Below, one piece after another: positions 1 to 36,748 of a DNA stretch of 64,000 nucleotides. The stretch lies in the NCBI GenBank assembly GCA_020073085.1, contig JAIQFV010000009.1, positions 124,162-188,161 on the forward strand. Reading direction: 5' to 3'. The notes beneath the pieces are model-generated. The model ran no database searches. It was not told where the DNA came from and saw only the letters and a list, made by a program, of their open reading frames with translations. The stretch comes from Terriglobia bacterium (lineage in GTDB: Bacteria > Acidobacteriota > Terriglobia > JAIQFV01). The stretch's first letter is position 1. Every line of letters begins with the position of its first letter. A program made the translations under genes and the position numbers.

Positions 1-710
1 CACCAGCACTACCGAAGCGGCATCAAACGAGACATAGCGGTGCAAGGCACGAAACAGGGAGCGAAACAACTCTTCCCGGTTGAGGTGTGACGCGATCGCA
101 TTGTTGACCTCGAGAATCAGCTGGTGCTGTCGTTCGAGGCGCACTTTTTCCTGCAAGGCAAAATTGTCTTGCTCGAGTTTTCGTGACACCCGTTTCAACT
201 GCTCATAAGTGGTCGCGTTGTCGTAGGCCAGGGCCACGATCCGAGACACCTCTTCAAACAACGTCCGGTCTTCAGGGGAATACGCATTCACACGACGGCT
301 GGCAATCGAAAGGATGCCCGCGACACGGTCCCTGACCACCAGGGGGACCGCACATCCCGAACGCAATCCGCCCTGCATCAGCTTCGTTGCACTCAGCGTG
401 AACTGCTCGGCTTTCCCAAAATCGGGGATCACTATGGATTCGCGGTGGTCATAAACCCAGCCGGCAATGCTCCCCTTGCGCGGGACCTTCACGTATCTGG
501 TCAACACCGCGCTAGGGGCATCGATCTCCAACATCTGAATCTGAAAGCCGTCTTCATCGGGATCCGGGATGAGCACCGCCGCATAATTGAGATCCACGAG
601 GCGACGCAGCGATTTGACCGCAGCATGAAACACGCCGTCCGGATCAAGTTTTGACACGGTGGCCGTTGTCATTTCGAGAAAAGCCCGGTATTTTTGTTCT
701 ACTGAACTCA
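1..710 (-). CDS. GAF domain-containing protein, N-terminal part (C-terminus lies beyond window start)
   Basis: Reverse-strand frame read by hand from ATG at 708-710: MSSVEQKYRAFLEMTTATV... runs to the window edge without a stop. It has the GAF-like pattern of regulatory sensor domains. It is absent from the ORF track because no stop falls inside the window. Confidence 0.5.
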
Positions 711-845: not shown

Positions 846-1799
846 TCAATCGAGAATCCTCTCCCCTATTTTCTGCTCCAGTGCCCTCTCATAGACTGTC
901 GCGCCGACGGCAAGATCTTCCAGCGCGATCCCGAGGGACTTAAAGAATGTAATCTCACCATTCGTTTCCCGGCCCTTTGATCTCCCGGTCACGACCCAGC
1001 CCAGTTCCCCCACCTTCTCCCAGTACATCAGACCGCGTTCCACGCATCTTTGGAATTCTCCTGCTTCCATTTTGGCCTGATCGAGGGAATCAACGACAAT
1101 CCGGTCCGATCGCAGGACCGTGGTTGTATCCACCTCAGCGCGAAGCGGGGAATTTCCCCCGATCACATTGAGATGCGCCCCCTCGCCGAGCCAGTCCCCG
1201 TCGAAGAGCGGTTCTGTTGCCATTGTGGCAGTAATGATGATGTCCGAACCCTCGACGACAGACCTCGCCTCAGTAACAGGCTGGACTTCAATTTTCAGCG
1301 CTGCCTCCATCGTCTTGCAGAAAGCCTGCCTTCGATCGGTCTTTCGGGAGAACGCCCTGACACGTCTGATTTTTCTTACAGCACATACGGCCTGCAATTG
1401 GGTTTGGGCCTGGTATCCCGTCCCGAAAATCCCGACGTTGGCGGCCTCTTCCCGTGCCATCCATTTCGTGGCAATCCCGCTGGCCGCGCCGGTCCGCATC
1501 TGCCCCATGCGGTCTGCCTCGATAATCGCCAGCAACTCACCGGTTTCTGAATGGTAGAGGTTGACCAGGAACTTTGAACCAGAAGTGAACCAGGTGTATG
1601 CCTTGAAACCGATGACTCCGAACGCGGGAAGTCCAGCCACCATCAGATTCAACCCGCCATGTTTTTGATGGATGCGGGCGCGGGGCAGATTCATGGCGCG
1701 GCCATGCCCCAACTCCACAAAGGCACGCTCCACCGAGGCCAGGGCCGTCGGCATGTCCAGCAATCGCTCCACATCGGATTCCCGCAAAAGCAGCGCCAC
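846..1799 (-). CDS. ornithine cyclodeaminase / mu-crystallin family protein
   Basis: 317 aa with a Rossmann-like GxGxxA region (GIFGTGYQAQTQL) and OCD/mu-crystallin family-like N-terminus (MALLLRESDVERLLDMP). Confidence 0.75.
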   Translation of the reverse strand: MALLLRESDVERLLDMPTALASVERAFVELGHGRAMNLPRARIHQKHGGLNLMVAGLPAFGVIGFKAYTWFTSGSKFLVNLYHSETGELLAIIEADRMGQMRTGAASGIATKWMAREEAANVGIFGTGYQAQTQLQAVCAVRKIRRVRAFSRKTDRRQAFCKTMEAALKIEVQPVTEARSVVEGSDIIITATMATEPLFDGDWLGEGAHLNVIGGNSPLRAEVDTTTVLRSDRIVVDSLDQAKMEAGEFQRCVERGLMYWEKVGELGWVVTGRSKGRETNGEITFFKSLGIALEDLAVGATVYERALEQKIGERILD

Positions 1800-3552: not shown

Positions 3553-5163
3553 TCAAGGCAGAACCACCTTCTGAAAGAACTTGTCGGCCGTCTTGGGATC
3601 GAGGGTTTTCAGCTTCTCGTAAACCTTGACGACATCCGATCGCTGGCCATTCTGATTGTAATAGAGGCCCAAGTTGTACCACGCCTCTGCATCGTCCGGT
3701 TTCAGCCGGATGGCGTCCTGAGTTGCGCTGATCGCCTTGTCGAATTGTCCAAGGCGGCGGTAGGCGGTACCCAAGTTCACCCATGCGTCTGCATGGTCTG
3801 GTTTCAACCGGATGGCTTCCCGCAAGGCGCTAACCTCCTTGTCGTATTGTCCATGGCTGCCGTAGGCAGTGCCCAAGTTGTACCACGTGTCTGCATGGTC
3901 CGGTTTCAACCGGATGGCTTCCTGCAAGGCGCTAACCTCCTCGTCGTATTGTCCAAGACTGCTGTAGAAAGTGCCCAGGTTGACCCACGGGTCTGCATCG
4001 TCCGGTTTCAGCCGGATGGCTTCCTGCAAGGCGCTGATCGCCTTCTCATATTGTCCAAGACTGCCGTAGAAAGTGCCCAGGTTGTACCACGCCTCTGCAT
4101 GGTCCGATTTTAACCGGATGGCTTCCTGCAAGGCATCAATTGCCTTGTCGTATTGTCTAAGGCGGCCGTAGGTAGTGCCCAAGTTGTACCACGCGTCTGC
4201 ATCGCCCGGTCTCAGGCGAATGGCTTCCTGCAAGGCGCTAATCGCCTTCTCATATTGTCCAAGGTTAAAGTAAGATACTCCCAAGTTATACCATTCCACT
4301 GCAAAGTCCGGTTTCAGTCGGATGGCTTCTCGGTAAGCGCTGACCGCCTCCTCGTATTTGCCCGCCTTTTGGGCTTCGTACCCCTTCACGAGCCACACGA
4401 AGCACTGGAAGGCGGGACTGTTACCGCGAGCGGCGGGCGCGGCGGTTGCAGGTTGGCGGTCGAGCGCCAGCGTCCACTCGCCCGGCAGGGCAAAATTCAA
4501 GCTCTGGCCCTCTTTAAGATAAAACGTGGTAATGCCTACCAGCTGTCCTTCAGCGTCAAACAGTCCGCCGCCACTTGATCCGGGGGAAATGGCGGCTGAA
4601 GTCTGAATCACCCGGTCTTTATCGAAATCTCGCAAGCCGGAAATCAGACCTTCTGAAATGGTCAGCTCCAGACCCTGCGGCGCGCCAATAGCATAAACCT
4701 TCTCACCCACAGCGAGCGTAGAAGAATCACGAACTTGAACAGCAGGGGCAGCGAGCCCAGCGACGGAAAGCTCCGCCAGGTCATGGTCGGCATCAACCTT
4801 CACGAGCCGGGCAGGCCACGTCTTTCCGGCATGACCGACCCTGAAGCTCACGCCATTCTCGATAACATGGCGGTTCGTCACAACGCGCCCCGTCGCGATA
4901 ATCACTCCGCTGCCGAAGGCCGCGACTGAACCCTTCGCTTCGAGCGACTCAACCACCATCACGGAAGGGGAGACACGCTTGAAGATTTCCTGCGGCGAGA
5001 GCGGCACAAGAGGACGCTGGCCTAGAGGCGTCTTAATACCTCGCACTTCGGGGACGTCTTGGTTGCGAACCTCCTGTGCTTGGAGAAAAACGACAAAAAG
5101 GAAGGATAAAATTGAGACTGTTACCAAAGAAGGTGAGAATCGACGCATCATAATAGCCTCCAT
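3553..5163 (-). CDS. trypsin-like (S1) serine protease with C-terminal TPR repeat array
   Basis: Signal peptide (MMRRFSPSLVTVSILSFLFVVFLQA). Protease motifs GSGVIIATGRVVTNRHV and SPGSSGGGLF. These are followed by about 8 near-identical 34-aa TPR units (AWYNLG..YGSLGQYEKAISALQEAIRLKPD). The ORF extends to 5202, but the likely start is at the signal peptide. Confidence 0.8.
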   Translation of the reverse strand: MEAIMMRRFSPSLVTVSILSFLFVVFLQAQEVRNQDVPEVRGIKTPLGQRPLVPLSPQEIFKRVSPSVMVVESLEAKGSVAAFGSGVIIATGRVVTNRHVIENGVSFRVGHAGKTWPARLVKVDADHDLAELSVAGLAAPAVQVRDSSTLAVGEKVYAIGAPQGLELTISEGLISGLRDFDKDRVIQTSAAISPGSSGGGLFDAEGQLVGITTFYLKEGQSLNFALPGEWTLALDRQPATAAPAARGNSPAFQCFVWLVKGYEAQKAGKYEEAVSAYREAIRLKPDFAVEWYNLGVSYFNLGQYEKAISALQEAIRLRPGDADAWYNLGTTYGRLRQYDKAIDALQEAIRLKSDHAEAWYNLGTFYGSLGQYEKAISALQEAIRLKPDDADPWVNLGTFYSSLGQYDEEVSALQEAIRLKPDHADTWYNLGTAYGSHGQYDKEVSALREAIRLKPDHADAWVNLGTAYRRLGQFDKAISATQDAIRLKPDDAEAWYNLGLYYNQNGQRSDVVKVYEKLKTLDPKTADKFFQKVVLP

Positions 5164-5365: not shown

Positions 5366-5554
5366 CTATCTCTTTAATTCAGGGGAAATTTCATCACGCT
5401 CAAGCCGGTCAGCCACCACGCGAAGGGCCAGGGCTTGCACTTTCGCACGAGCCTCTTGTGGAGTCCCACCATAGGCCAAGACGCCAGGGAGTTCTGCAAC
5501 CTCTGCTATCCAGCGTCCATCTTCCTCTTGTTCCAGCTCAACCAAAAAAGTCAT
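5366..5554 (-). CDS. HicB-like / UPF0150 family antitoxin-like protein
   Basis: 62 aa: MTFLVELEQEEDGRWIAEVAELPGVLAYGGTPQEARAKVQALA matches the HicB N-terminal RNase-H-like fold signature. No HicA-sized ORF is visible alongside. Confidence 0.6.
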   Translation of the reverse strand: MTFLVELEQEEDGRWIAEVAELPGVLAYGGTPQEARAKVQALALRVVADRLERDEISPELKR

Positions 5555-5744
5555 GCAATACTCCGCTTGTCCTATCTCCTGCGAATCGATTCTATCATAG
5601 TCCCTCCGAGTGAAAGAATTCCGCCTCAGACCTTACTAATTTCCAATCCAGGAAAAGAGCGGGTGCCGCAGACATGTCCGCCTGGGCGGACATGTCTGCG
5701 AAGAGTGATCCATGACGCCTCTACTCTCCCCGGCAAGGCCACCG

Positions 5745-5835
5745 GCAAATCCCCCAAGGGCCACGACCAGCCGCGGCCTTCAGGATTCTGGCAGACGCAG
5801 GCATGCACACAACGCATGCCTGCGGCACCCCGGCA
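5745..5835. repeat. REP-like palindromic repeat, copy 1
   Basis: ttctggcagacgcaggcatgcacacaacgcatgcctgcggcaccc forms a perfect 11-12-bp stem around a 7-nt loop, with about 45 bp of conserved 5' flank. Confidence 0.8.
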
Positions 5836-6209
5836 ACCCTATTCTTTTTCCTCAGGATTAGGCCGTGAATCACCCCTAACGCCAGAATTCTCATCCCACT
5901 ACCGGGAGGTGGTGGATCATTCAGATTCAGCCTACCTACGGACCGCGTCCGACTGGAAAATCCCTCCCGCGGAAGCTGGTGGATCGTTCAAATCCCGACT
6001 TTCACTAGGGCGGGGACTGACAACTTCCCCTGCTTTCCTGCCGTCGACTCAGAAATGGCCGTGATCCCTGGCAATGGAGTCACCAAGCTACTTCAGAAAG
6101 CATGGTGGTTTTGTTTTGATGGTAGGACTTGAATCATCCCCCAACCCCCGTTGGGGGAATTAAGATTTTCAGGTCCGACCTCTCCCACGGTAAAATGCTC
6201 GCCATTTTT

Positions 6210-7177: not shown

Positions 7178-7480
7178 TCATTGGTGAACGTTCGACAGCG
7201 GTTGAATGCGCCGCACATGGATTTGGTTCTCGCGTTTACGGGTTTGAGCGATGTCGTAAGAGGCTTGCATTCGCATGAGCGTGTCCATCTTCACTCCAAA
7301 GGCTTTCTCGATACGGAGTGCCATGTTCCCGGAAAGGTCAGCCTTGGCGTTGAGCAGGCTGGAGAGCGCGGGCCGGGAAACATGAAGCGCGGCCGCCGCC
7401 GCCGTCACCGAAAGCCCCGCGGGCTCGATAATCTCCGTCCGAATGAAATCTCCGGGATGGGGCGGGTTCTTCATAGGCAT
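7178..7480 (-). CDS. higA: HigA family antitoxin (XRE-type HTH)
   Basis: 100 aa: HPGDFIRTEIIEPAGLSVTAAAAALHVSRPALSSLLNAKADLSGNMALRIEKAF is a classic HigA/antidote HTH. Confidence 0.8.
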   Translation of the reverse strand: MPMKNPPHPGDFIRTEIIEPAGLSVTAAAAALHVSRPALSSLLNAKADLSGNMALRIEKAFGVKMDTLMRMQASYDIAQTRKRENQIHVRRIQPLSNVHQ

Positions 7481-7499
7481 GGCGTTTACTCCTCTTATC

Positions 7500-7790: not shown

Positions 7791-7879
7791 CAGACCGACT
7801 GTAGCCCGTCGCTTAACACTTGTCAAGTGGGGTCCCTGAGTGCGCTGCACACCCCCCGGTGCAGCCACCCGCAAATTCC

Positions 7880-7960
7880 CCTAGGATAACGCCGTCGGCG
7901 GTCTTCAGGACTCTGGCAGACGCAGGCATGCACAAGACGCATGCCTGCGGCACCCGGGAA
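7880..7960. repeat. REP-like palindromic repeat, copy 2
   Basis: ctctggcagacgcaggcatgcacaagacgcatgcctgcggcaccc. Confidence 0.8.
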
Positions 7961-8094
7961 AAACAGTGAGTCTTGGGACCCTTTCGATTGCCACTCAAGG
8001 ACGGTCACGAATGCCGCAGACATGGGCTTTTTGCATTGCTGCGAAGGGCGGTACCTGGAGCCGCTACTCCCCCGAAGGAGGGCGCCCGCAGATC

Positions 8095-8175
8095 TTCAAA
8101 GGGGCGGGCCGACCGGCACTCTTCGAGACTCTGGCAGACGCAGGCATGCAAAAAATGCATGCCTGCGGCCCCCCG
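8095..8175. repeat. REP-like palindromic repeat, copy 3
   Basis: ctctggcagacgcaggcatgcaaaaaatgcatgcctgcggccccc with conserved 5' flank. Confidence 0.8.
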
Positions 8176-8281
8176 GGTACCTGCTCCCGTTTGACTCTCT
8201 AGTCTCCTCTGCCTATAATTGCCGTTACTTATTTACCGCCTCTTTCACGCATTCGCCCTCTCTCAGGGCAAGGAGTCATTC

Positions 8282-28022: not shown

Positions 28023-30662
28023 ATGACTCTCCCTCGTAGATTGTTGGTTGCGGTGATCGTTTCCATCATATCAGGAATGGTGCCGACTCATGCAAGTGAT
28101 AATTCAGCGGTCAAGCCGGCCCCCCGGGCAGCCCCTTCCCGGGATGCAAACGTCACCGCGTGGACACTGGCTAACGGTCTCGCGGTTGTTCACATCCGGA
28201 AGCCCTCTTCGAAAGTGCTGGCTTCGATTGTCACGATTAACGTCGGCTCCAAGGATGAAAAAAGTGAGACCAGCGGACTCTCGCATCTGCTCGAGCACAT
28301 GGTCTTCGACGGGACACAGCGGCGCAGCCGGGCTGAGATTAACGAGGGCTCCAAACGCTATGGAGGGTACGTCAACGCCACTACGCGGGCTGGATTCACG
28401 TGCTACCTCTCCATCTTCCCGTCCGAGTTCGCGGAGCTGTCACTTGACCTCCAGGGTGACATGCTCTTTCATTCCACGATTCCCTCGCAGGAACTGGAAA
28501 AGGAGCGCAAGGTTGTCATCGAGGAAATGAAGAAAGACCGCGATTCACCGGTCACCCGGGCCGCCGAATTCCACGACGAGCTGCTTTTTCAAGGGACAGC
28601 CTATGCCCGGCCCGTGCTGGGTTTTGAGCAGACCATCGCGTCGGTCCCCCGGTCGACGGTCCTCACCTACTATCAGCAGCACTATGTTCCCTCACGCATG
28701 AAAGCGATGATCATCAGCCCATTCCCGGCCTCCGAAGTCAAAAAGTGGATGGATAAGACATTTGGGACGGCCGGTTCTCCCGGCGCATCCGTGAAAGGAG
28801 CATCCCGGTGGACTTTTCCCACAGCCGGGGCGCCGCAGTACAAGGAAGAAGAGGTGCCCGCGGCCTACCTCGAGATATCCCTGCCCGCTCCAGCACTGGG
28901 GGACTCCGATTACTTCGCCTATGACCTGCTGTCGCGCTATCTCGCGGAGGGAGGGGCTTCCCCACTCCAACGGGCCCTCCGCATGGTGCGTCCGCCGCTG
29001 GTCGATAGCGTGAGCGCGGATTTGAACACGGAGGATACATTCTCAATCTGGAAAATTTCCATGGTCACACAACCCGGCCAGATTCCCGATGTGCTTGAAA
29101 GCTTGCGTCGCACCCTGCAAACCCTCGCCACCACCGGAATCCCTGCAGAGGAGATGCCCCGACTCCAGCGCCAGGTGCTTTCACAGGAAGCCATCCTGTC
29201 GGAGCAGGCCATGTACTACGGATTCCTCAAGGCGCCTTATATGAATGCCAAAGGGTACTCATTCGTCGCCACCTATCCCGAGCGGCTTCGCGGCGTCACA
29301 CCTGAGGCGGTGCGAAGAGTGGCAGAAAAATACTTCGCTAACCCGGTCTTCTTCATAACCGCCCTTGTTCCCAAGGGCAAGATTCCTCCTATCGAACCTG
29401 CAGGCGACGCCCATGCGTGGAAAAAGGAAACACTGCCCAACGGCGTGACGCTGATTGCGAAAGGGAGTGACGAATCCGATGTTTTTGCGATGAGCCTGTT
29501 CACGCGCCAGCGCTCCGCCCTCGAACCGCAGGATCTGGAAGGGATTTCTGATTTCGTTCAGCGCATGCTGCTCAAAGGCACAGCTTCCCGAAGCGAGGAG
29601 GCCATTCAAAAGGAACTGGACGATCTTTCGGCCCAAATTCAATTTGTCGACAACCCGTTCATTCCTTATGACGATGCCTGGACCACAAACCGCTTCAACT
29701 TCTTCCGCCTGGAAGCGCTGGATGAACTGCGGGGCCGTGCACTGGACTTGATGGGCGATGTGATTGCCAATGCCAACTTTCCCGACGCGCAAGTCGCCAA
29801 GGTGCGCGAGGAAATCGTCCGGCTTCAAACGCGGGAGGCCGACAATTCCTCGAAACGAGCCGTCCAGCGCCTCCATAATCTGCTCTTGGCTTCAACCCCG
29901 TACAGCCGGACGATTCTTGGAAGCGAGGGATCCATCCGAAAGATCAACCGCGAGTCGCTGATCGAACACTATAGACACATGTACGCCCCCTCCAATCTGG
30001 TGGTGATTGCCGCAGGCAAGGGAACTACCGCTGGGGTCCTGCGCGATCTCAGGTCGCGCTTCGAGAGTCTGAAGGGGGACGGTGTAAACCTTTCTGTGAC
30101 ACCTCCGACGCCTCGCACCAACTTTCTCTCGGAGAAAATTACCGTCAACAAGCAGCAGACCCAGATTGCAGCCGGGACGCTGGCGGCCGGTTGGAATTCA
30201 CCGGATGCGGCTGCCCTGCGCGTGTTGAATTCCGTCCTTTCGGAGCGGCTGGCGGTGGATCTGCGAGAAAAGCAGGGACTGGCTTACTCCGTAGGTTCGG
30301 ATCTACAGCAGGAACGCGACTACGGTTGGATCGAAGTTCGGATGGGCACGCGTGCCGAGGCCGCTGAACAAGCCCGCGAGGGGTTGCTGGCCGTGGTGCG
30401 TAAACTGGCGGGCGGCGAGATCTCGGCCGAGGAGCGCGAGCGGGCGATCAACGGCATGTGGGGCAGCCTCTTGCGCCAACGGTTGTCACGCATCGGCCAG
30501 ACTTTCTATCGCGGGATCGACGAAGTCCGCGGCTCGGGTTATGACGCCGAAGATCGATTATTGGCGTCATTGAAAGCCGTCACCCTGGAAGACCTGAGAC
30601 GCGTCGCGGGCGAGGCCTTGAATACCAATCGCTGGGTCATGGTGTCAGTGGGAAAGAATTGA
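28023..30662 (+). CDS. M16 (pitrilysin/insulinase) family zinc metallopeptidase, double-unit
   Basis: Signal peptide MTLPRRLLVAVIVSIISGMV. Inverted zinc motif HLLEHMVFDG. About 880 aa with two M16 + M16_C halves. Confidence 0.85.
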   Translation: MTLPRRLLVAVIVSIISGMVPTHASDNSAVKPAPRAAPSRDANVTAWTLANGLAVVHIRKPSSKVLASIVTINVGSKDEKSETSGLSHLLEHMVFDGTQRRSRAEINEGSKRYGGYVNATTRAGFTCYLSIFPSEFAELSLDLQGDMLFHSTIPSQELEKERKVVIEEMKKDRDSPVTRAAEFHDELLFQGTAYARPVLGFEQTIASVPRSTVLTYYQQHYVPSRMKAMIISPFPASEVKKWMDKTFGTAGSPGASVKGASRWTFPTAGAPQYKEEEVPAAYLEISLPAPALGDSDYFAYDLLSRYLAEGGASPLQRALRMVRPPLVDSVSADLNTEDTFSIWKISMVTQPGQIPDVLESLRRTLQTLATTGIPAEEMPRLQRQVLSQEAILSEQAMYYGFLKAPYMNAKGYSFVATYPERLRGVTPEAVRRVAEKYFANPVFFITALVPKGKIPPIEPAGDAHAWKKETLPNGVTLIAKGSDESDVFAMSLFTRQRSALEPQDLEGISDFVQRMLLKGTASRSEEAIQKELDDLSAQIQFVDNPFIPYDDAWTTNRFNFFRLEALDELRGRALDLMGDVIANANFPDAQVAKVREEIVRLQTREADNSSKRAVQRLHNLLLASTPYSRTILGSEGSIRKINRESLIEHYRHMYAPSNLVVIAAGKGTTAGVLRDLRSRFESLKGDGVNLSVTPPTPRTNFLSEKITVNKQQTQIAAGTLAAGWNSPDAAALRVLNSVLSERLAVDLREKQGLAYSVGSDLQQERDYGWIEVRMGTRAEAAEQAREGLLAVVRKLAGGEISAEERERAINGMWGSLLRQRLSRIGQTFYRGIDEVRGSGYDAEDRLLASLKAVTLEDLRRVAGEALNTNRWVMVSVGKN

Positions 30663-30667
30663 AGCTT

Positions 30668-30706
30668 TGGTAGCCCCGCCTGCGTTTTTTGCCGGCGGGG
30701 GCTCTT
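30668..30706 (+). terminator. GC hairpin downstream of the M16 peptidase gene
   Basis: gccccgcc-tgcgttttttgcc-ggcgggggc immediately after the stop codon. It is a truncated copy of the structured repeat family seen at 35-38 kb. Confidence 0.35.
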
Positions 30707-31192
30707 GGGCGAGGTTGGCAGAAGAAAACATGATCAAAGAGGTGGGACTCAGACATTGGCAATTTCAAGAATTAAGCATGAAGAAAAACACCTTGGGTTA
30801 GACTCGTCGAGGGACCAACTCCGAGACAAAATTTCAAATGAGAAGGTCTGTCACCGCAAATTCTAGACCCCTAGCAATGGAGAAGATGACGAGCTGGATT
30901 AAATTCGTGCGGATGCACGGAGCCCGACTCCTGCTGCTTGGCGTTCTTCTCACCGCTTGCTGGTTTATCGCGATCAAAGCGTTTGAAGGGTTGTTTATTT
31001 ATCTGTTTGCGATTAGCGACTCGGTTAGTCGGACACGGATAATGGTTAATCGTCACCCGAACGTTTTCAGAATTATCCTACGTCCTGGCCTGATGCCGAT
31101 TGCGTTTGACCAGCGGTTCCAGAGCCTGAGGGCCTAGCAGGAAGTTGTTCAACCGCGTCGTTCCCGGTGTCTAATCCCAGATCAAGGACTGT

Positions 31193-31735
31193 ATGCGCCA
31201 AGAAATCCAGTTTCGTAAGGTATTACCCATCGCGCAGACGATTCTGGCCTTGCTCTTTGCCGGGTTGGGTCTTTGGCAGCGGAACCAGATCCTAAGTCAC
31301 TCATGGTTTGGATGGAACTCCACCGCACGGTTTCACGTTTGGCCATGGCCATTCAAATATGCGGTGGTGTCAAATACACCTGCATTTCTGGCGGGCATGC
31401 TCCTTTCCTGGCCCGTCGATTCTTTGTGGCCGAGACTCCCCGAACCGATTCAAATCTCGCTCGCACTCCCCTTCATCCCGATCCTCTGGTATTGGGTCGG
31501 TTCGCGACTGGATCGAAAGTGGGGCGCTGTGGAGGGCACGAGGATATCGCGACGCCGTAGCCGATGGGTATTCATTTTGATCTTCACATTAGTCTGCATG
31601 ATGGGGGCCTATCTCCCATCTCGGTACTTGGGCTACGTGGGGTACCTGTATTACGGCATAGTTGTCTGGGTAGCTACGCCTCTCATCCTGCACCGTTTCT
31701 CAACAATTCGCCCGGACGGTTCATTAATAAACTGA
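31193..31735 (+). CDS. hypothetical membrane protein (AT-rich islet)
   Basis: 180 aa, multiple Trp-rich TM segments. Confidence 0.4.
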   Translation: MRQEIQFRKVLPIAQTILALLFAGLGLWQRNQILSHSWFGWNSTARFHVWPWPFKYAVVSNTPAFLAGMLLSWPVDSLWPRLPEPIQISLALPFIPILWYWVGSRLDRKWGAVEGTRISRRRSRWVFILIFTLVCMMGAYLPSRYLGYVGYLYYGIVVWVATPLILHRFSTIRPDGSLIN

Positions 31736-31774
31736 AGCTCGCCTGCGTCCTTATGGATGATTGATGTGAAAATA

Positions 31775-31845
31775 AAAGGGGCCACACCTGGACATAGGAC
31801 AGAAACGCAGAGAGCGAAGGGCGATTCCCTAAGCCGATTGACAAG
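31775..31845. repeat. direct repeat R1 in AT-rich islet
   Basis: ggccacacctggacataggacagaaacgcagagagcgaagggcgattccctaagccgattgacaagaa is about 75% identical to R2. Confidence 0.6.
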
Positions 31846-31848
31846 AAT

Positions 31849-32298
31849 GTGGAAGGCAACGCTGAAATACAAAATGCAAAGACACGACCCCAAAAAATTA
31901 TGGATCCCATAAAACAAGCTGATGGAATCATTCAATTCATGAATCAAAACGATTTCCTGATGAGGAATTATGTGGGATTTGTCACTTTAGGAGAAGCCGC
32001 GAGCGTTAATCGCTATTTTGATACAGGAAACCAAGTATCTTTCAAGCTTCTGCGCGATGCACACGACAAAGTAGTTGAACGACTCAATACAGTGAGGGCG
32101 TACTATATCAATGCCACTGTGAAGGGTAGTGCTGTTGTAGAAGAGGATTCAGAATTGCTTTTGGGTATTCAGGCTGCAGACATTTCGGTAGGAATTGCAT
32201 CGCGAATTTATGAGAGGCATCCTAAAAGCAGAATCGACGGAGCAAAAGCCGTTAAGGATGTATTCACAAGGGTGTTACTTAATGATCATTGGCTTTAA
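31849..32298 (+). CDS. hypothetical protein (AT-rich islet)
   Basis: 149-aa ORF directly after direct repeat R1. No recognisable domain. Confidence 0.35.
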   Translation: MEGNAEIQNAKTRPQKIMDPIKQADGIIQFMNQNDFLMRNYVGFVTLGEAASVNRYFDTGNQVSFKLLRDAHDKVVERLNTVRAYYINATVKGSAVVEEDSELLLGIQAADISVGIASRIYERHPKSRIDGAKAVKDVFTRVLLNDHWL

Positions 32299-32390
32299 CA
32301 TGATATTCGCTCGACTTCCCGCAATGCGAAGCATAGCCTTTTTTCTGGTTGCGTTGGCTTTAGATCCTGATCCCCCATCCCTATAGTGAG

Positions 32391-32801
32391 ATGCGCGTAA
32401 CAGTTCACTGGAAATCTCTTAAGGAAGGCGATGACGGCTGGGGACAGATCCGCTGCCTGTATGCGGTCCTCGGGCGCGGAAAAGAGATCCTCTACATAGG
32501 GAAGTGCTGGGGCAAGACTGTCCGCGAGCGGTGGACCCGGTCCGGAAAGCCAGACTTCTGGGATGAGATTGAGCAGGAACGGGGCATAAAAAAGCACGCT
32601 CTTCTGGTGGGCACCGTTGAGATGGATCGTTCGAGGAGGCTTACACACTGGCTCTTGATGGACATTGAAAGCCTGCTTATCATCTGCGAGCAGCCGTGGG
32701 GAAACAGGCAGAGCAAGAAATCAAGGATTCCAAGGCCGGGGCTAATTGTTAAGTGCGTCGGAACCTGGCCAAGCAAAACAAAGACATATCGGGACATCTG
32801 A
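32391..32801 (+). CDS. GIY-YIG nuclease-domain protein
   Basis: CLYAVLGRGKEILYIGKCWGKTVRERW: Y-x10-YIG-x7-R-x2-W spacing matches the GIY-YIG core. Downstream E (ICEQPW) and N are at the expected positions. Confidence 0.5.
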   Translation: MRVTVHWKSLKEGDDGWGQIRCLYAVLGRGKEILYIGKCWGKTVRERWTRSGKPDFWDEIEQERGIKKHALLVGTVEMDRSRRLTHWLLMDIESLLIICEQPWGNRQSKKSRIPRPGLIVKCVGTWPSKTKTYRDI

Positions 32802-32817
32802 AAATTTCATCAGGAAG

Positions 32818-32895
32818 ATAAAAGGCGTTACACCTGGGCATAGGACAGAGACGTGGCGAGCGGAGCGGCGATTTCCAAAGCGGATTGATGGCGAG
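32818..32895. repeat. direct repeat R2 in AT-rich islet
   Basis: cgttacacctgggcataggacagagacgtggcgagcggagcggcgatttccaaagcggattgatggcgag. Confidence 0.6.
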
Positions 32896-33084
32896 CGCCT
32901 TGGCCAAGAAAATCACCGCGGAGAGAGATAGTCCCGTGGGCAAGGGAATCCCTGGTTTTCAGGAACGGACAGACTCAGACCCTGCCCTGCGTGCGCTCTT
33001 GCAAAGGGCCAGCTCCACTTTGCCCTATGTCCAGGTGCGAGCCCATGTTCACCATGTTCAAGAACCGTATAAAGGAGAAAGACA

Positions 33085-33647
33085 TGAAATACACGAAGGC
33101 ATTTATCGCGGCAATTTGGTGCTGCAGTTTTCTCTCTTCCGTTGCTGGGATCATGGCTCAAGACAAACAGCTAGCTACGATTAAGAAGAAAGACGGACAA
33201 CAAATCGAAGGAGAGATAAAAGGTGTTATCGTCCAAAAGGAGACTATCAAAGAATGGACGGAGGGCTCCAAAAAGCACTACAACGTGCTCTACTACCTTA
33301 CCAACGGCAGTGACATCCGTGCCATCGATGAGAAGGGTGTCCACGTTCCCGAGGGGACTCAGATCCCAACACGCTTTGTCACGCAGAAAGGCAAGCCTCC
33401 AGATGATCTTGAGGTCTTGCAGGTTGCAGAAGACAAGAAGTCTTTAATACCAACAACAAAGGCGGGAGGCCAAGTACTAAGGGCTGGCATGGCAGCGACT
33501 GGTGTAAGCGCCGCAATGCTCCTCGGCGAACTGAGGACAAAAGATGGCAAAACAGGTCTAATTGGCGCCTTGGAGATCCAGACTACAAGCGGTCTGATTT
33601 CCATTCCGGTTGGCGAAATTATCGACTTCACACAAAAGGAAAAGTGA
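33085..33647 (+). CDS. hypothetical secreted protein
   Basis: Signal peptide MKYTKAFIAAIWCCSFLSSVAGIMA. Confidence 0.45.
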
Positions 33648-33736
33648 AGTATGAAAGGGGATAAGCAAGTAGGGTGAGACAATGTCGGTGCCCGACCCAA
33701 TCAATTGAAATAAAGCCGGACACAAGGAGGCAGACC

Positions 33737-34456
33737 ATGTCACTCAAAAAACTCGCTTTCATCATTCTCATGATTCTCCTGATGACGACAGTTTCCGCGG
33801 GCCAGACCGACATTCTTCAGCAACTCGGCCTCGGGAAAAAGCAGTCATTAAGCGATGCCAAGATTGGAGCGGGACTCAAGGAGGCACTTCAGGTCGGCAC
33901 AGGGAATGCCGTCAAGACCACCGGCCGCCTGGATGGTTACTTCAAGAACGAAGCCATCAAGATTCTGATGCCCAAGCAGCTTCAGACGATGGAAAAAGGA
34001 TTGCGCATGGTCGGCTACGGGCCGCAGCTGGATGAATTTGTTCTCAGCATGAATCGCGCCGCTGAGGCTGCTGCGCCTCAGGCGAAGGCCATTTTTCTCA
34101 ATGCCATCCGTAACATGACGCTTACTGATGTCCGGAAAATCTTCACCGGCGGTGACACCGCGGCCACGGAATATTTCAAAGAACAAACCACGGATCAACT
34201 GACTACCGCGTTTTCTCCGATCGTCCAAAAGTCCATGAACGAGGTGGGCGTCACCCGGCAGTACAAGGAGTTGATGGGACGATTTCAATCGATCCCCTTC
34301 GCCAGGACCCAGGCCTTTGACATTGACAAGTATGTTGTCGGAAAAGCCCTGGACGGACTGTTCTTCGTGGTCGGAGAAGAAGAGCGCAAAATTCGAAAAA
34401 ATCCCGCTGCCCAGGTGACGAGCCTGTTGCGAGAGGTATTCGGCAGGAAACAGTGA
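33737..34456 (+). CDS. secreted DUF4197-like protein
   Basis: Signal peptide [21 protein letters not shown]. Body resembles the DUF4197 family (weak recollection). Confidence 0.4.
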
Positions 34457-35114: not shown

Positions 35115-35520
35115 GGAAATGCCCCCGCCATAAAAACGTGCCGGGGCCACCCAAACCTTTCCGAAAAGCAATGTTTTGGTAGCCTCGCCGGCGCTTTCTG
35201 CCGGCGGGGGCTCTTCAGGATTGCGGCACCTTTGCTGATTCCTTCCCGACTGCGACCAACTGCCCCCGCCACAAAAACGTGGCGGGGCTACCAAACCTTT
35301 TCCGAAGGGCAATGTTTTGGTAGCCTCGCCGGCGCGTTTTGCCGGCGGGGGCTCTTCGGGTTTGCGTGAACCTAATCTGATCTTTGCCTGGTTGCTACGA
35401 ATTGCCCCCGCCACAAGAACGTGGCGGGGCTACCAAACCTTTTCCGAAGGGCAATGTTTTGGTAGCCTCGCCGGCGCGTTTTGCCGGCGGGGGCTTTTCG
35501 GGTTGGCGGGGCTACCAGAG
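35115..35520. repeat. tandem array 1 of structured palindromic repeat (3 units of about 140 bp, each containing 3 hairpins)
   Basis: Unit = tgcccccgccacaaaaacgtggcggggc (10-bp stem), then gctaccaaa...tttggtagc, then cgccggcgcgttttgccggcgg, closed by ggcgggggc. Three consecutive near-identical copies. Confidence 0.85.
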
Positions 35521-36059: not shown

Positions 36060-36450
36060 GCCATTTTGAAACAACTTTGGGTGGTGTGCCCAGCGGACTT
36101 CTGCCGGCCGCGACGGAATGCCCCCGCATTCAGAATGCGGAGAGGCGACCCTCACATCAGGTTCTTGATCGGAGTATTATCGGGAAGGAAAACCGGATGA
36201 GGGGTTTGTCTGGGAACCATTTCTTTGGAAGTCAGACCCATGAAAATTGACTATAAGAAAGTGATCCCCTTCACCGGATGGGTAAGCGTTCTGCTTATCT
36301 TGTGTATCTCCAAGTTTACGTCTGTTACACGGGATGGTTTTGTCCAAAGCACTCTCCTTGCCTGTCCGAGCATTACTTAGCCCATCGGTCGCAAGTAAGC
36401 GAGGGATTTTCCACGATTTCGCCCACAATCGCTGATTCCTTCCCAACCTC

Positions 36451-36748
36451 AACGAAGTGCCCCCGCCACAAAAACGTGGGGGGGCTACCAAACCTTTCCA
36501 GAAGGCAAAACTCGGGTGGCCTGCAATGAAATGCCCCCGCCACTAAAACGTGGCGGGGCTACCAAACCTTTCCAGAAGGCAAAACTCGGGTGGCCCGCAA
36601 CGAAATGCCCCCGCCACTAAACCGTGGCGGGGCTACCAAACCTTTCCAGAAGGCAAAACTCGGGTGGCCTGCAACGAAATGCCCCCGCCACTAAACCGTG
36701 GCGGGGCTACCAGACCTTTCCAGAGGGCAAAACTCGGGTGGCCTGCAA
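36451..36748. repeat. tandem array 2 of structured palindromic repeat (4 units of about 72 bp)
   Basis: Four near-identical copies of gaaatgcccccgccactaaaacgtggcggggctaccaaacctttccagaaggcaaaactcgggtggcctgcaac. Confidence 0.9.

Follow-up and report, generated by a model that had tools for sequence, protein, structure and literature searches.

The AT-rich interval between an M16 peptidase gene (ending at 30662) and a DUF4197 gene (starting at 33737; Pfam E 1.6e-77) on contig JAIQFV010000009.1 of a Terriglobia bacterium is probably an accretion zone of genomic debris, in which relics of miniature inverted-repeat transposable elements (MITEs) incidentally flank an intact gene for a small GIY-YIG nuclease and a fragment of a foreign gene. 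The interval was analysed within a 64,000-nt stretch of the contig (positions 124,162 to 188,161 of assembly GCA_020073085.1), referred to here as the window, whose coordinates are used throughout. The first-pass annotation had read these two genes as a mobile cassette bounded by two direct repeats, R1 and R2, a reading that we do not favour. Between the M16 peptidase and DUF4197 genes lie, in order, a repetitive extragenic palindrome (REP), two hypothetical genes, R1, an open reading frame (ORF) of 132 or 149 codons, an ORF of 136 codons, R2, an inverted copy of the repeat core and a gene for a 187-aa protein. The accretion interval itself is bounded by a 180-aa membrane-protein gene and the 187-aa secreted-protein gene, and it contains the following features.

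31768 to 31842, plus strand: R1, a truncated solo left arm (A-arm) of a TIRtron-derived MITE, with its terminal inverted repeat (TIR) core at 31769-31804; family similarity ends after GATTGACA.
31843 to 31899, no strand: 57 nt that join the broken MITE arm to the truncated gene, probably marking a deletion; the sequence resembles neither the MITE family nor the N-terminal portion of DUF3800-like proteins.
31900 to 32298, plus strand: 132 codons, most likely the 5'-truncated remnant of a DUF3800-like gene for about 330 aa; AT-rich and of foreign composition, with a GC content at third codon positions (GC3) of 37.6%.
32391 to 32801, plus strand: an intact gene for a 136-aa nuclease of predicted GIY-YIG fold, from an unannotated family of about 140 aa; host-like GC.
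32815 to 33049, plus strand: a complete MITE-like element of 235 bp, derived by internal deletion from a TIRYT (Y1 transposase) element and comprising the A-arm (R2, 32815 to about 32945) and the right arm (B-arm, about 32946 to 33049).

The direct repeats of about 75 bp are real. Positions 31768-31819 and 32814-32865 were 81% identical over 52 nt without a gap, and about 75 nt of R1 and R2 (32815-32895) could be aligned with one indel, at a repeat period of 1046 bp. A 24-nt core occurred twice in the window and in none of 100 shuffles; the core of the family reads ATAAAAGGGGTCACACCTGGACATAGGACAGA. A third, inverted copy, R3, was found at 33017-33049, with the core stretch CACCTGGNCATAGG inverted at 33024-33037, and an nhmmer model of the core detected exactly three cores in the 64 kb, at 31769-31804 (+), 32816-32851 (+) and 33017-33049 (-). 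All three TIR copies are degenerate (R1 GGGGCCAC, R2 GGCGTTAC and R3 GGGCTCGC).

A 19-position pattern of the core, with 18 specified bases, was searched in one genome per GTDB species; the 17 stretches obtained are close to what chance alone would give. Eight of the 17, holding nine copies, belong to four metagenome-assembled genomes (MAGs) of Terriglobia/Acidobacteriota, and the extended head ATAAAAGGGGTCA preceding the pattern is confined to them; the remaining matches came from unrelated phyla and had dissimilar flanks. No locus in this representative collection carried two same-strand cores 1046 bp apart. Looking for R1 and R2 in relatives, a check proposed in the first-pass annotation, thus turned up a family of TIRtron/MITE repeats in other Terriglobia MAGs, in both orientations and beside unrelated genes (IMPDH, MsrA, methyltransferase, AraC regulator, Fic and IS4 transposase). 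R2 was 87% identical over 95 nt to a copy in another MAG (locus L014), a value exceeding its identity to R1 (81%). Since R2 is closer to the L014 copy than to R1, and copies lie beside unrelated genes, R1 and R2 are independent members of a dispersed family and not boundaries; they do not delimit a two-gene cassette.

The identity of this family was evident from the opposite strand of the core, which reads as the end of a gene (...SxLSYVQV, stop, CCCCTTTTAT); the reverse complement encodes ...LSYVQV* plus TGACCCCTTTTAT. At locus L022, in a related MAG and not in the window, an ORF of 363 codons ending in the core matched the Pfam family Y1_Tnp (PF01797, E 1.1e-11) and, below threshold, the NCBIfam model REP_Tyr_transpos (REP-associated tyrosine transposase, RAYT) and the DnaA C-terminus. 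The nhmmer model placed inverted cores on both sides of this gene, at 519-553 (+) and 1701-1735 (-), within an autonomous element of 1217 bp, and it also detected core clusters in L025 and an inverted pair spanning 236 bp in L029. Y1 transposases flanked by TIRs with the motif GGGGWSAS constitute the TIRYT/TIRtron class, which includes a sharply defined group specific to Acidobacteria; its TIRs can extend over the 3' end of the transposase gene and occur as single, dimeric or clustered repeats (PMC3733652); members of TIRYT subclass 2.1, which are TnpA_REP-like, carry a Bac_DnaA_C tail (Quentin et al. 2018, PMC6006769). The family consensus GGGGTCAC fits GGGGWSAS, the inverted TIRs of L022 surround its Y1_Tnp gene with one overlapping the 3' end, the transposase has a DnaA-C-like helix-turn-helix (HTH) tail, the host phylum is the same, and the TIRs again are single, dimeric or clustered. 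R1 and R2 are therefore ends of a dispersed Terriglobia TIRtron/TIRYT (Y1, IS200-like/RAYT-like) family, a repeat system already known from the literature. Unlike the described elements, those in the window are all non-autonomous and no transposase is encoded there; the 235-bp copy retains the final ~29 transposase codons, which makes it MITE-like and not a bare TIR dimer.

The family also shares features with REP/RAYT systems and their inverted REP doublets (REPINs), namely short dispersed intergenic repeats linked to a domesticated-looking Y1/HUH transposase and the occurrence of inverted doublets. It differs from them in that the core lacks a GTAG (or CGTC) tag, is non-palindromic and folds no better than shuffles. 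A REPIN-like doublet was observed at L020 (4470-4545), where a TIR copy is followed about 50 nt on by an inverted partial copy (GGGTCACACCTGGACATA ... TATGTCCAGGCCTGACCC).

R2 and the inverted core are the two ends of one MITE-like element, and R1 is a truncated solo arm. Positions 32831-33049 were 78.5% identical over 219 nt to L029 6685-6900, and the element could be aligned over its full length with the copies in L029 and L028. Its right half encodes ...QERTDSDPALRALLQRASSTLPYVQV, homologous to the C-terminus of the L022 and L025 transposases, which identifies the 235-bp element as an internal-deletion derivative. The A-arm corresponds to the left end, upstream of the transposase gene in full elements; the B-arm retains a remnant of the transposase C-terminus (QERTDS...LPYVQV) together with the inverted TIR core at 33017-33049. 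Because of this gene remnant, the ORF at 32885-33184 is a spurious read-through, and the earlier statement that both repeats immediately precede an ORF holds for R1 but not for R2. R1 departs from every other A-arm after GATTGACA (at about 31842), and the A-arms of R2, L014, L028 and L029 stay alike for about 55 nt past this break. At L014, too, an A-arm was seen for which no partner TIR could be detected in the vicinity. In three MAGs, MITE copies (window 32946-33049, L029 6685-6790 and L028 3825-3950) keep an in-frame mini-ORF, in which a start codon is fused to the last ~29 transposase codons (MTRSQERTDS...LSYVQV); its stop is mutated in some copies, giving read-through ORFs.

A different view of the same arms is that R1 and R2 are exapted regulatory modules, with the same-orientation A-arms driving or co-regulating the 132-codon ORF and GIY-YIG gene pair and the 187-aa secreted protein. 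Both arms are aimed at downstream plus-strand genes, -35-like hexamers can be picked out by eye (TTGACA in R1; TTGATG-17-GAAAAT in R2), and the A-arm lies upstream of the transposase start in full elements. However, a promoter scan was empty in both arms and the number of sites in the region equalled the shuffle expectation; R1 and R2, folded on both strands, were no better than shuffles (z between -0.38 and 1.01), and Rfam at gathering thresholds gave no match in the window. The occurrence of the family in either orientation next to unrelated genes and the cutting of R1 right after its -35-like box also speak against regulation, which we regard as unlikely. A riboswitch or small RNA was dropped on the same Rfam and folding results. 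By inspection the core did not fit the sigma-54 pattern TGGCAC-N5-TTGC, and a sigma-70 promoter was rejected on the empty scan of the arms.

Beyond the repeats, the accretion account draws on base composition. The window has a mean GC of 55.5% (sd 3.7%, 400-nt windows), and the lowest 400-nt value across all 64 kb, 41.8%, starts at 31900. The marked GC drop described for the whole interval is thus real, but it is narrower than had been thought, the ORF at 31900-32298 (GC 41.6%, GC3 37.6%) being the sole strongly deviant one. The GIY-YIG gene (GC 54.5%, GC3 66.4%) is comparable to the M16 peptidase (GC3 67%) and DUF4197 (65%) genes. A co-transferred functional unit of two genes is not borne out: their GC3 values lie 29 points apart and one of the genes is a fragment. 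A fixed two-gene system was likewise rejected, as about 55 homologue loci shared no flanking family and a DUF3800-like gene was never a neighbour.

The deviant ORF had been taken for an unknown 149-aa protein. In tblastn searches, database homology began at the ATG at 31900, giving 132 aa. An exhaustive phmmer search of 1.84 billion representatives identified 81 relatives, the majority of 320-340 aa, and query residues 17-149 aligned to residues ~197-329 of the ~330-aa relatives at 40-45% identity; a word-indexed search found only the ORF's own 132-aa cluster. Pfam DUF3800 was matched below the cut-off (model positions 63-148, E 0.004), the relatives being marginal DUF3800 members, and coverage was confined to residues ~197-329, leaving out the N-terminal half. 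No trace of the N-terminal ~197 residues was detected by tblastn anywhere in the window. Since homology starts at 31900 and the N-terminal part left no trace in the window, the ORF is most likely the 5'-truncated remnant (the 3' 40%) of a foreign ~330-aa DUF3800-like gene; a short functional form is less probable. The break in the gene (at or before 31899) and the break in R1 (~31842) are separated by 57 nt, and this spacing suggests one deletion behind both.

These data bear on another interpretation, in which R1 and R3 are the ends of a 1282-bp TIR-bounded composite (31768-33049), with the transposase gene replaced and the nuclease as cargo movable by a TIRYT transposase. The outer cores are correctly inverted, both outer TIR heads are present, and the 1282-bp span is near that of the 1217-bp autonomous L022 element. 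Nevertheless, R2 to R3 already forms a full element by itself that is collinear with the MITEs of L029 and L028, and R1 is broken after 75 nt and continues into unrelated sequence. The supposed cargo holds a dead gene fragment of discordant GC, the R repeat was present at none of the 69 homologue loci checked for flanks, and the exact GIY-YIG protein was found in one context only, across 23 contigs. We consider such a composite quite improbable and retain the view of MITE relics that flank the nuclease gene by chance.

The 136-aa protein belongs to a new, unannotated family within a well-known superfamily. It has 70 homologues at 41-63% identity, in Alcanivorax and in MAGs of beta- and gammaproteobacteria, and at least 132 further homologues in JGI metagenomes; the closest (63% identity) is encoded at L001 of Alcanivorax sp. 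S71-1-4. No model for this ~140-aa family was found in Pfam, NCBIfam, PHROGs or PADLOC, and a family profile gave no relevant match to PDB sequences. The GIY and YIG motifs read CLYAV...ILYIGK, with the tyrosines 11 residues apart. Across 41 sequences, Y24, Y35, I, G37, K38, R47, K53, E93 (in "ESLLI") and N105 (in P102-W-G-N105) are invariant.

An AlphaFold2 model of the protein (pLDDT 90, pTM 0.85) predicts a single compact domain with an extra N-terminal strand (2-10) and a C-terminal beta-hairpin (119-134). The GIY and YIG motifs lie on strands 21-27 and 33-40, and R47, E93 and N105 on helices 44-51, 86-100 and 103-108. The top six Foldseek matches in the PDB were UvrC GIY-YIG domains (probability 0.90-0.97, TM (target) 0.52-0.62), I-TevI ranked 13th, and matches in BFVD were mostly phage GIY-YIG endonucleases, including EndoII-type (best E 7e-4). 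We accept the protein as a GIY-YIG superfamily member on its predicted fold and catalytic residues, so that the motif noticed at first stands on fold comparison and invariant residues but not on profile search, where Pfam GIY-YIG models stayed below threshold. The predicted fold, the tyrosine spacing, the invariant first-helix Arg and the invariant 'E..LI...P.GN' Glu/Asn segment are shared with the UvrC N-terminal domain, the I-TevI catalytic domain and T4 endonuclease II-type enzymes, and the size with phage EndoII-type single-domain enzymes. In contrast, the N-terminal strand, the C-terminal beta-hairpin and several invariant Trp/Arg residues are the family's own; fused DNA-binding, UvrC or MutS-type domains are absent, no phage homologues were found by sequence, and no Pfam or NCBIfam GIY-YIG model reached threshold. 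The proposed catalytic set would be complete, with Tyr24 and Tyr35 (GIY and YIG strands), Arg47, Lys53, Glu93 as metal ligand and Asn105, the roles of R47, E93 and N105 being assigned from motif order and not from residue-level superposition. The protein would most likely cut DNA by the usual one-metal GIY-YIG mechanism. The model contains no separate DNA-binding domain, and for this reason the protein probably acts as an oligomer.

The earlier suggestion of a homing-endonuclease-like element would make the protein a free-standing homing endonuclease (like T4 seg or I-TevI) that spreads via empty sites, with the repeats as repair scars. The GIY-YIG fold, the presence of I-TevI and of phage homing or intron-associated endonucleases among the structural matches, and a lone gene with ever-changing neighbours are consistent with this. 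Set against them are the one compact 136-aa domain with neither linker nor DNA-binding domain, the lack of an intron or intein context, and the lack of relatives by sequence in 2.9 million IMG/VR viral contigs, INPHARED phages and PLSDB plasmids. Moreover, the repeats are independently explained as TIRtron MITEs, and at several loci mobility is explained by attC-like sites. Homing is thus very unlikely, and a phage or plasmid origin of the nuclease was rejected on the same three databases.

The neighbourhoods of the homologues were examined. The 181 ORFs that flank about 55 homologues contain no family that recurs, duplicated contigs aside, and DUF3800-like genes were never adjacent. The genes next to the homologues encode, among others, MazF, AbiEii-type ATPases, Eco57I/N6 and N4/N6 methylases, NotI, GmrSD+HEPN, OLD-TOPRIM, pAgo, AriA and LmuB. 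By our hairpin scan, attC-like hairpins stand directly beside the gene in about 8 of 69 homologue loci (~12%): RYYYAAC...GTTRRRY sites lie 6-24 nt from the gene at L031, L077, L080, L087 (both sides), L092 and L096, and the Alcanivorax gene at L001 starts 12 nt past an attC-like site (..TAAC...GTTA..). When ten other homologue loci were searched for repeats around the gene, only Alcanivorax had them, in the form of attC-like sites and a different repeat of ~110 nt. In contigs of Proteobacteria type, attC-like hairpins often flank the gene. With no recurrent neighbours, defence-gene neighbours and attC-like flanks, the family behaves like a single-gene module that belongs to the defence/accessory pool and moves horizontally, and the attC-like flanks suggest that these homologues are integron cassettes. 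They resemble integron cassettes, including the defence cassettes of sedentary chromosomal integrons (bioRxiv 10.1101/2024.07.02.601686), in being single ORFs a few nt from attC-like hairpins; they differ in that the window has no attC and no integrase was seen in the fetched homologue flanks. That paper contains no occurrence of GIY-YIG. Of the proposal that the segment was horizontally acquired or mobile, the AT-rich foreign fragment and the patchy nuclease family with its variable neighbourhoods are upheld, but not a cassette in the window.

Several side observations were made at these loci. L001 3900-7900 resembles an integron cassette array, with attC-like sites at 3916-3993 and 4911-4988, and GmrSD and HEPN genes come next; its ~110-nt repeat, with ends GGGACACGCA...TGCGTGTCCC, occurs at 4056-4167, 4710-4811, 5476-5577, 7401-7499 and 7798-7892. 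The sole recurrent immediate-neighbour pair was seen at L038 (4048-6206) and L052 (5001-7161), where the homologue lies ~110 nt upstream of a ~550-aa gene and a shared ~310-aa gene follows each ~550-aa gene. PADLOC pAgo models matched two scanned neighbours (best E 7e-184), probably these ~550-aa genes.

The attC-like sites elsewhere raise the idea that the window segment itself is a cassette of the integron type, or one of another site-specific recombination system, whose attC- or att-like sites would be R1 and R2, given that homologues adjoin such hairpins and that the genes lie between R1 and R2 at a spacing of 1046 bp. Yet R1 and R2 have neither RYYYAAC...GTTRRRY ends nor hairpin potential (z-scores 0.15 and 0.63), an attC scan of the window gene and its flanks was negative, and the repeats are accounted for as TIRtron ends, leaving the idea with hardly any credibility. 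No tRNA or tmRNA genes, as potential integration targets, were found in the window.

The family is often beside restriction, toxin-antitoxin, pAgo, GmrSD and OLD-type genes, and judged by this sequence context, defence or inter-element conflict may be the most likely function of the nuclease, a tentative assignment that falls somewhat short of an even chance. The further proposal, that the ~140-aa family is an undescribed stand-alone defence/conflict nuclease, a one-gene module with no dedicated partner that travels in apparent integron cassettes in Proteobacteria and in loose islets in Acidobacteria, is more doubtful.

Taken as an accretion zone, the locus may have formed as follows. A non-autonomous element derived from an acidobacterial TIRtron probably inserted here at least twice; a TIRtron has a Y1/HUH transposase gene with a DnaA-C-like HTH tail and TIRs of ~36 bp bearing GGGGTCAC. 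One copy is intact at 32815-33049, with the left arm fused to the last ~29 transposase codons and a TIR at each end, and the second persists only as its first ~75 nt (R1). A TIRYT transposase from another part of the genome presumably acts on these elements in trans. A foreign, AT-rich DUF3800-like gene for ~330 aa most likely lost its 5' ~590 nt, and a single deletion probably took this part together with the rest of the R1 copy. The 136-aa gene is an intact single-gene module, either independently acquired or long resident.

Some of the results weigh against this account or parts of it. We can only infer the order of events at the locus, because neither an empty site nor a genome related closely enough to reveal one was found; DUF4197 relatives were at most 75% identical and not syntenic. 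Exact look-ups of the nuclease and its 187-aa neighbour returned the same arrangement in all 16-23 population contigs, and no TIRYT gene lies within the 64-kb window. Among the relatives of the 132-aa ORF in the databases, some have lengths of only ~130-150 aa. The 136-aa protein had no match to PF01541 or PF20815 at gathering score; relatives matched in the correct register but below the cut-off, 7 of 41 to PF20815 (best E 0.013) and 2 of 41 to PF01541, and hhalign against E. coli UvrC aligned only the YIGKA motif, at 7.5% probability. PADLOC has no model that recognises the nuclease, and the attC-like calls came from a simple home-made scan, not IntegronFinder.

Other features of the window were also recorded. 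The right TIR of the MITE ends 35 nt ahead of the start codon of the 187-aa signal-peptide protein, whose gene (33084-33647), just 3' of the MITE, has a somewhat low GC3 of 53.7% and no assigned family. A separate, GTAG-tagged REP family of the form TGGTAGCCCCGCC-loop-GGCGGGG occurs at 30668-30700, 35116-35509, 36117-36151 and 36450-36748, as a single copy 6 nt past the M16 peptidase stop and in tandem clusters (2.8 units of 142 bp and 4 units of 74 bp) that resemble bacterial interspersed mosaic elements; the clusters produce many spurious 'APPRFCGGG' ORFs. A third palindromic family (CGCAGGCATGC-loop-GCATGCCTGCG) was found at 5796-5824, 7921-7949 and 8139-8167 and sits inside the 148-nt repeats 5691-5838 and 8034-8181. 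It is also present in another Terriglobia MAG (L014 3111-3358; L029 282-326), where a 71-bp tandem array of 94% identity indicates a REP cluster and not a CRISPR.

These results indicate that look-alike repeats around small Terriglobia genes should be tested against the TIRtron/MITE and REP families of the lineage before a cassette is called, as TIRYT-derived MITEs that keep the last transposase codons give rise to spurious ORFs and apparent shared 5' motifs. The more useful by-product of the analysis is a conserved family of small GIY-YIG proteins missed by current domain and defence databases, and this ~140-aa family would be a cheap candidate for defence-system or nuclease screens.

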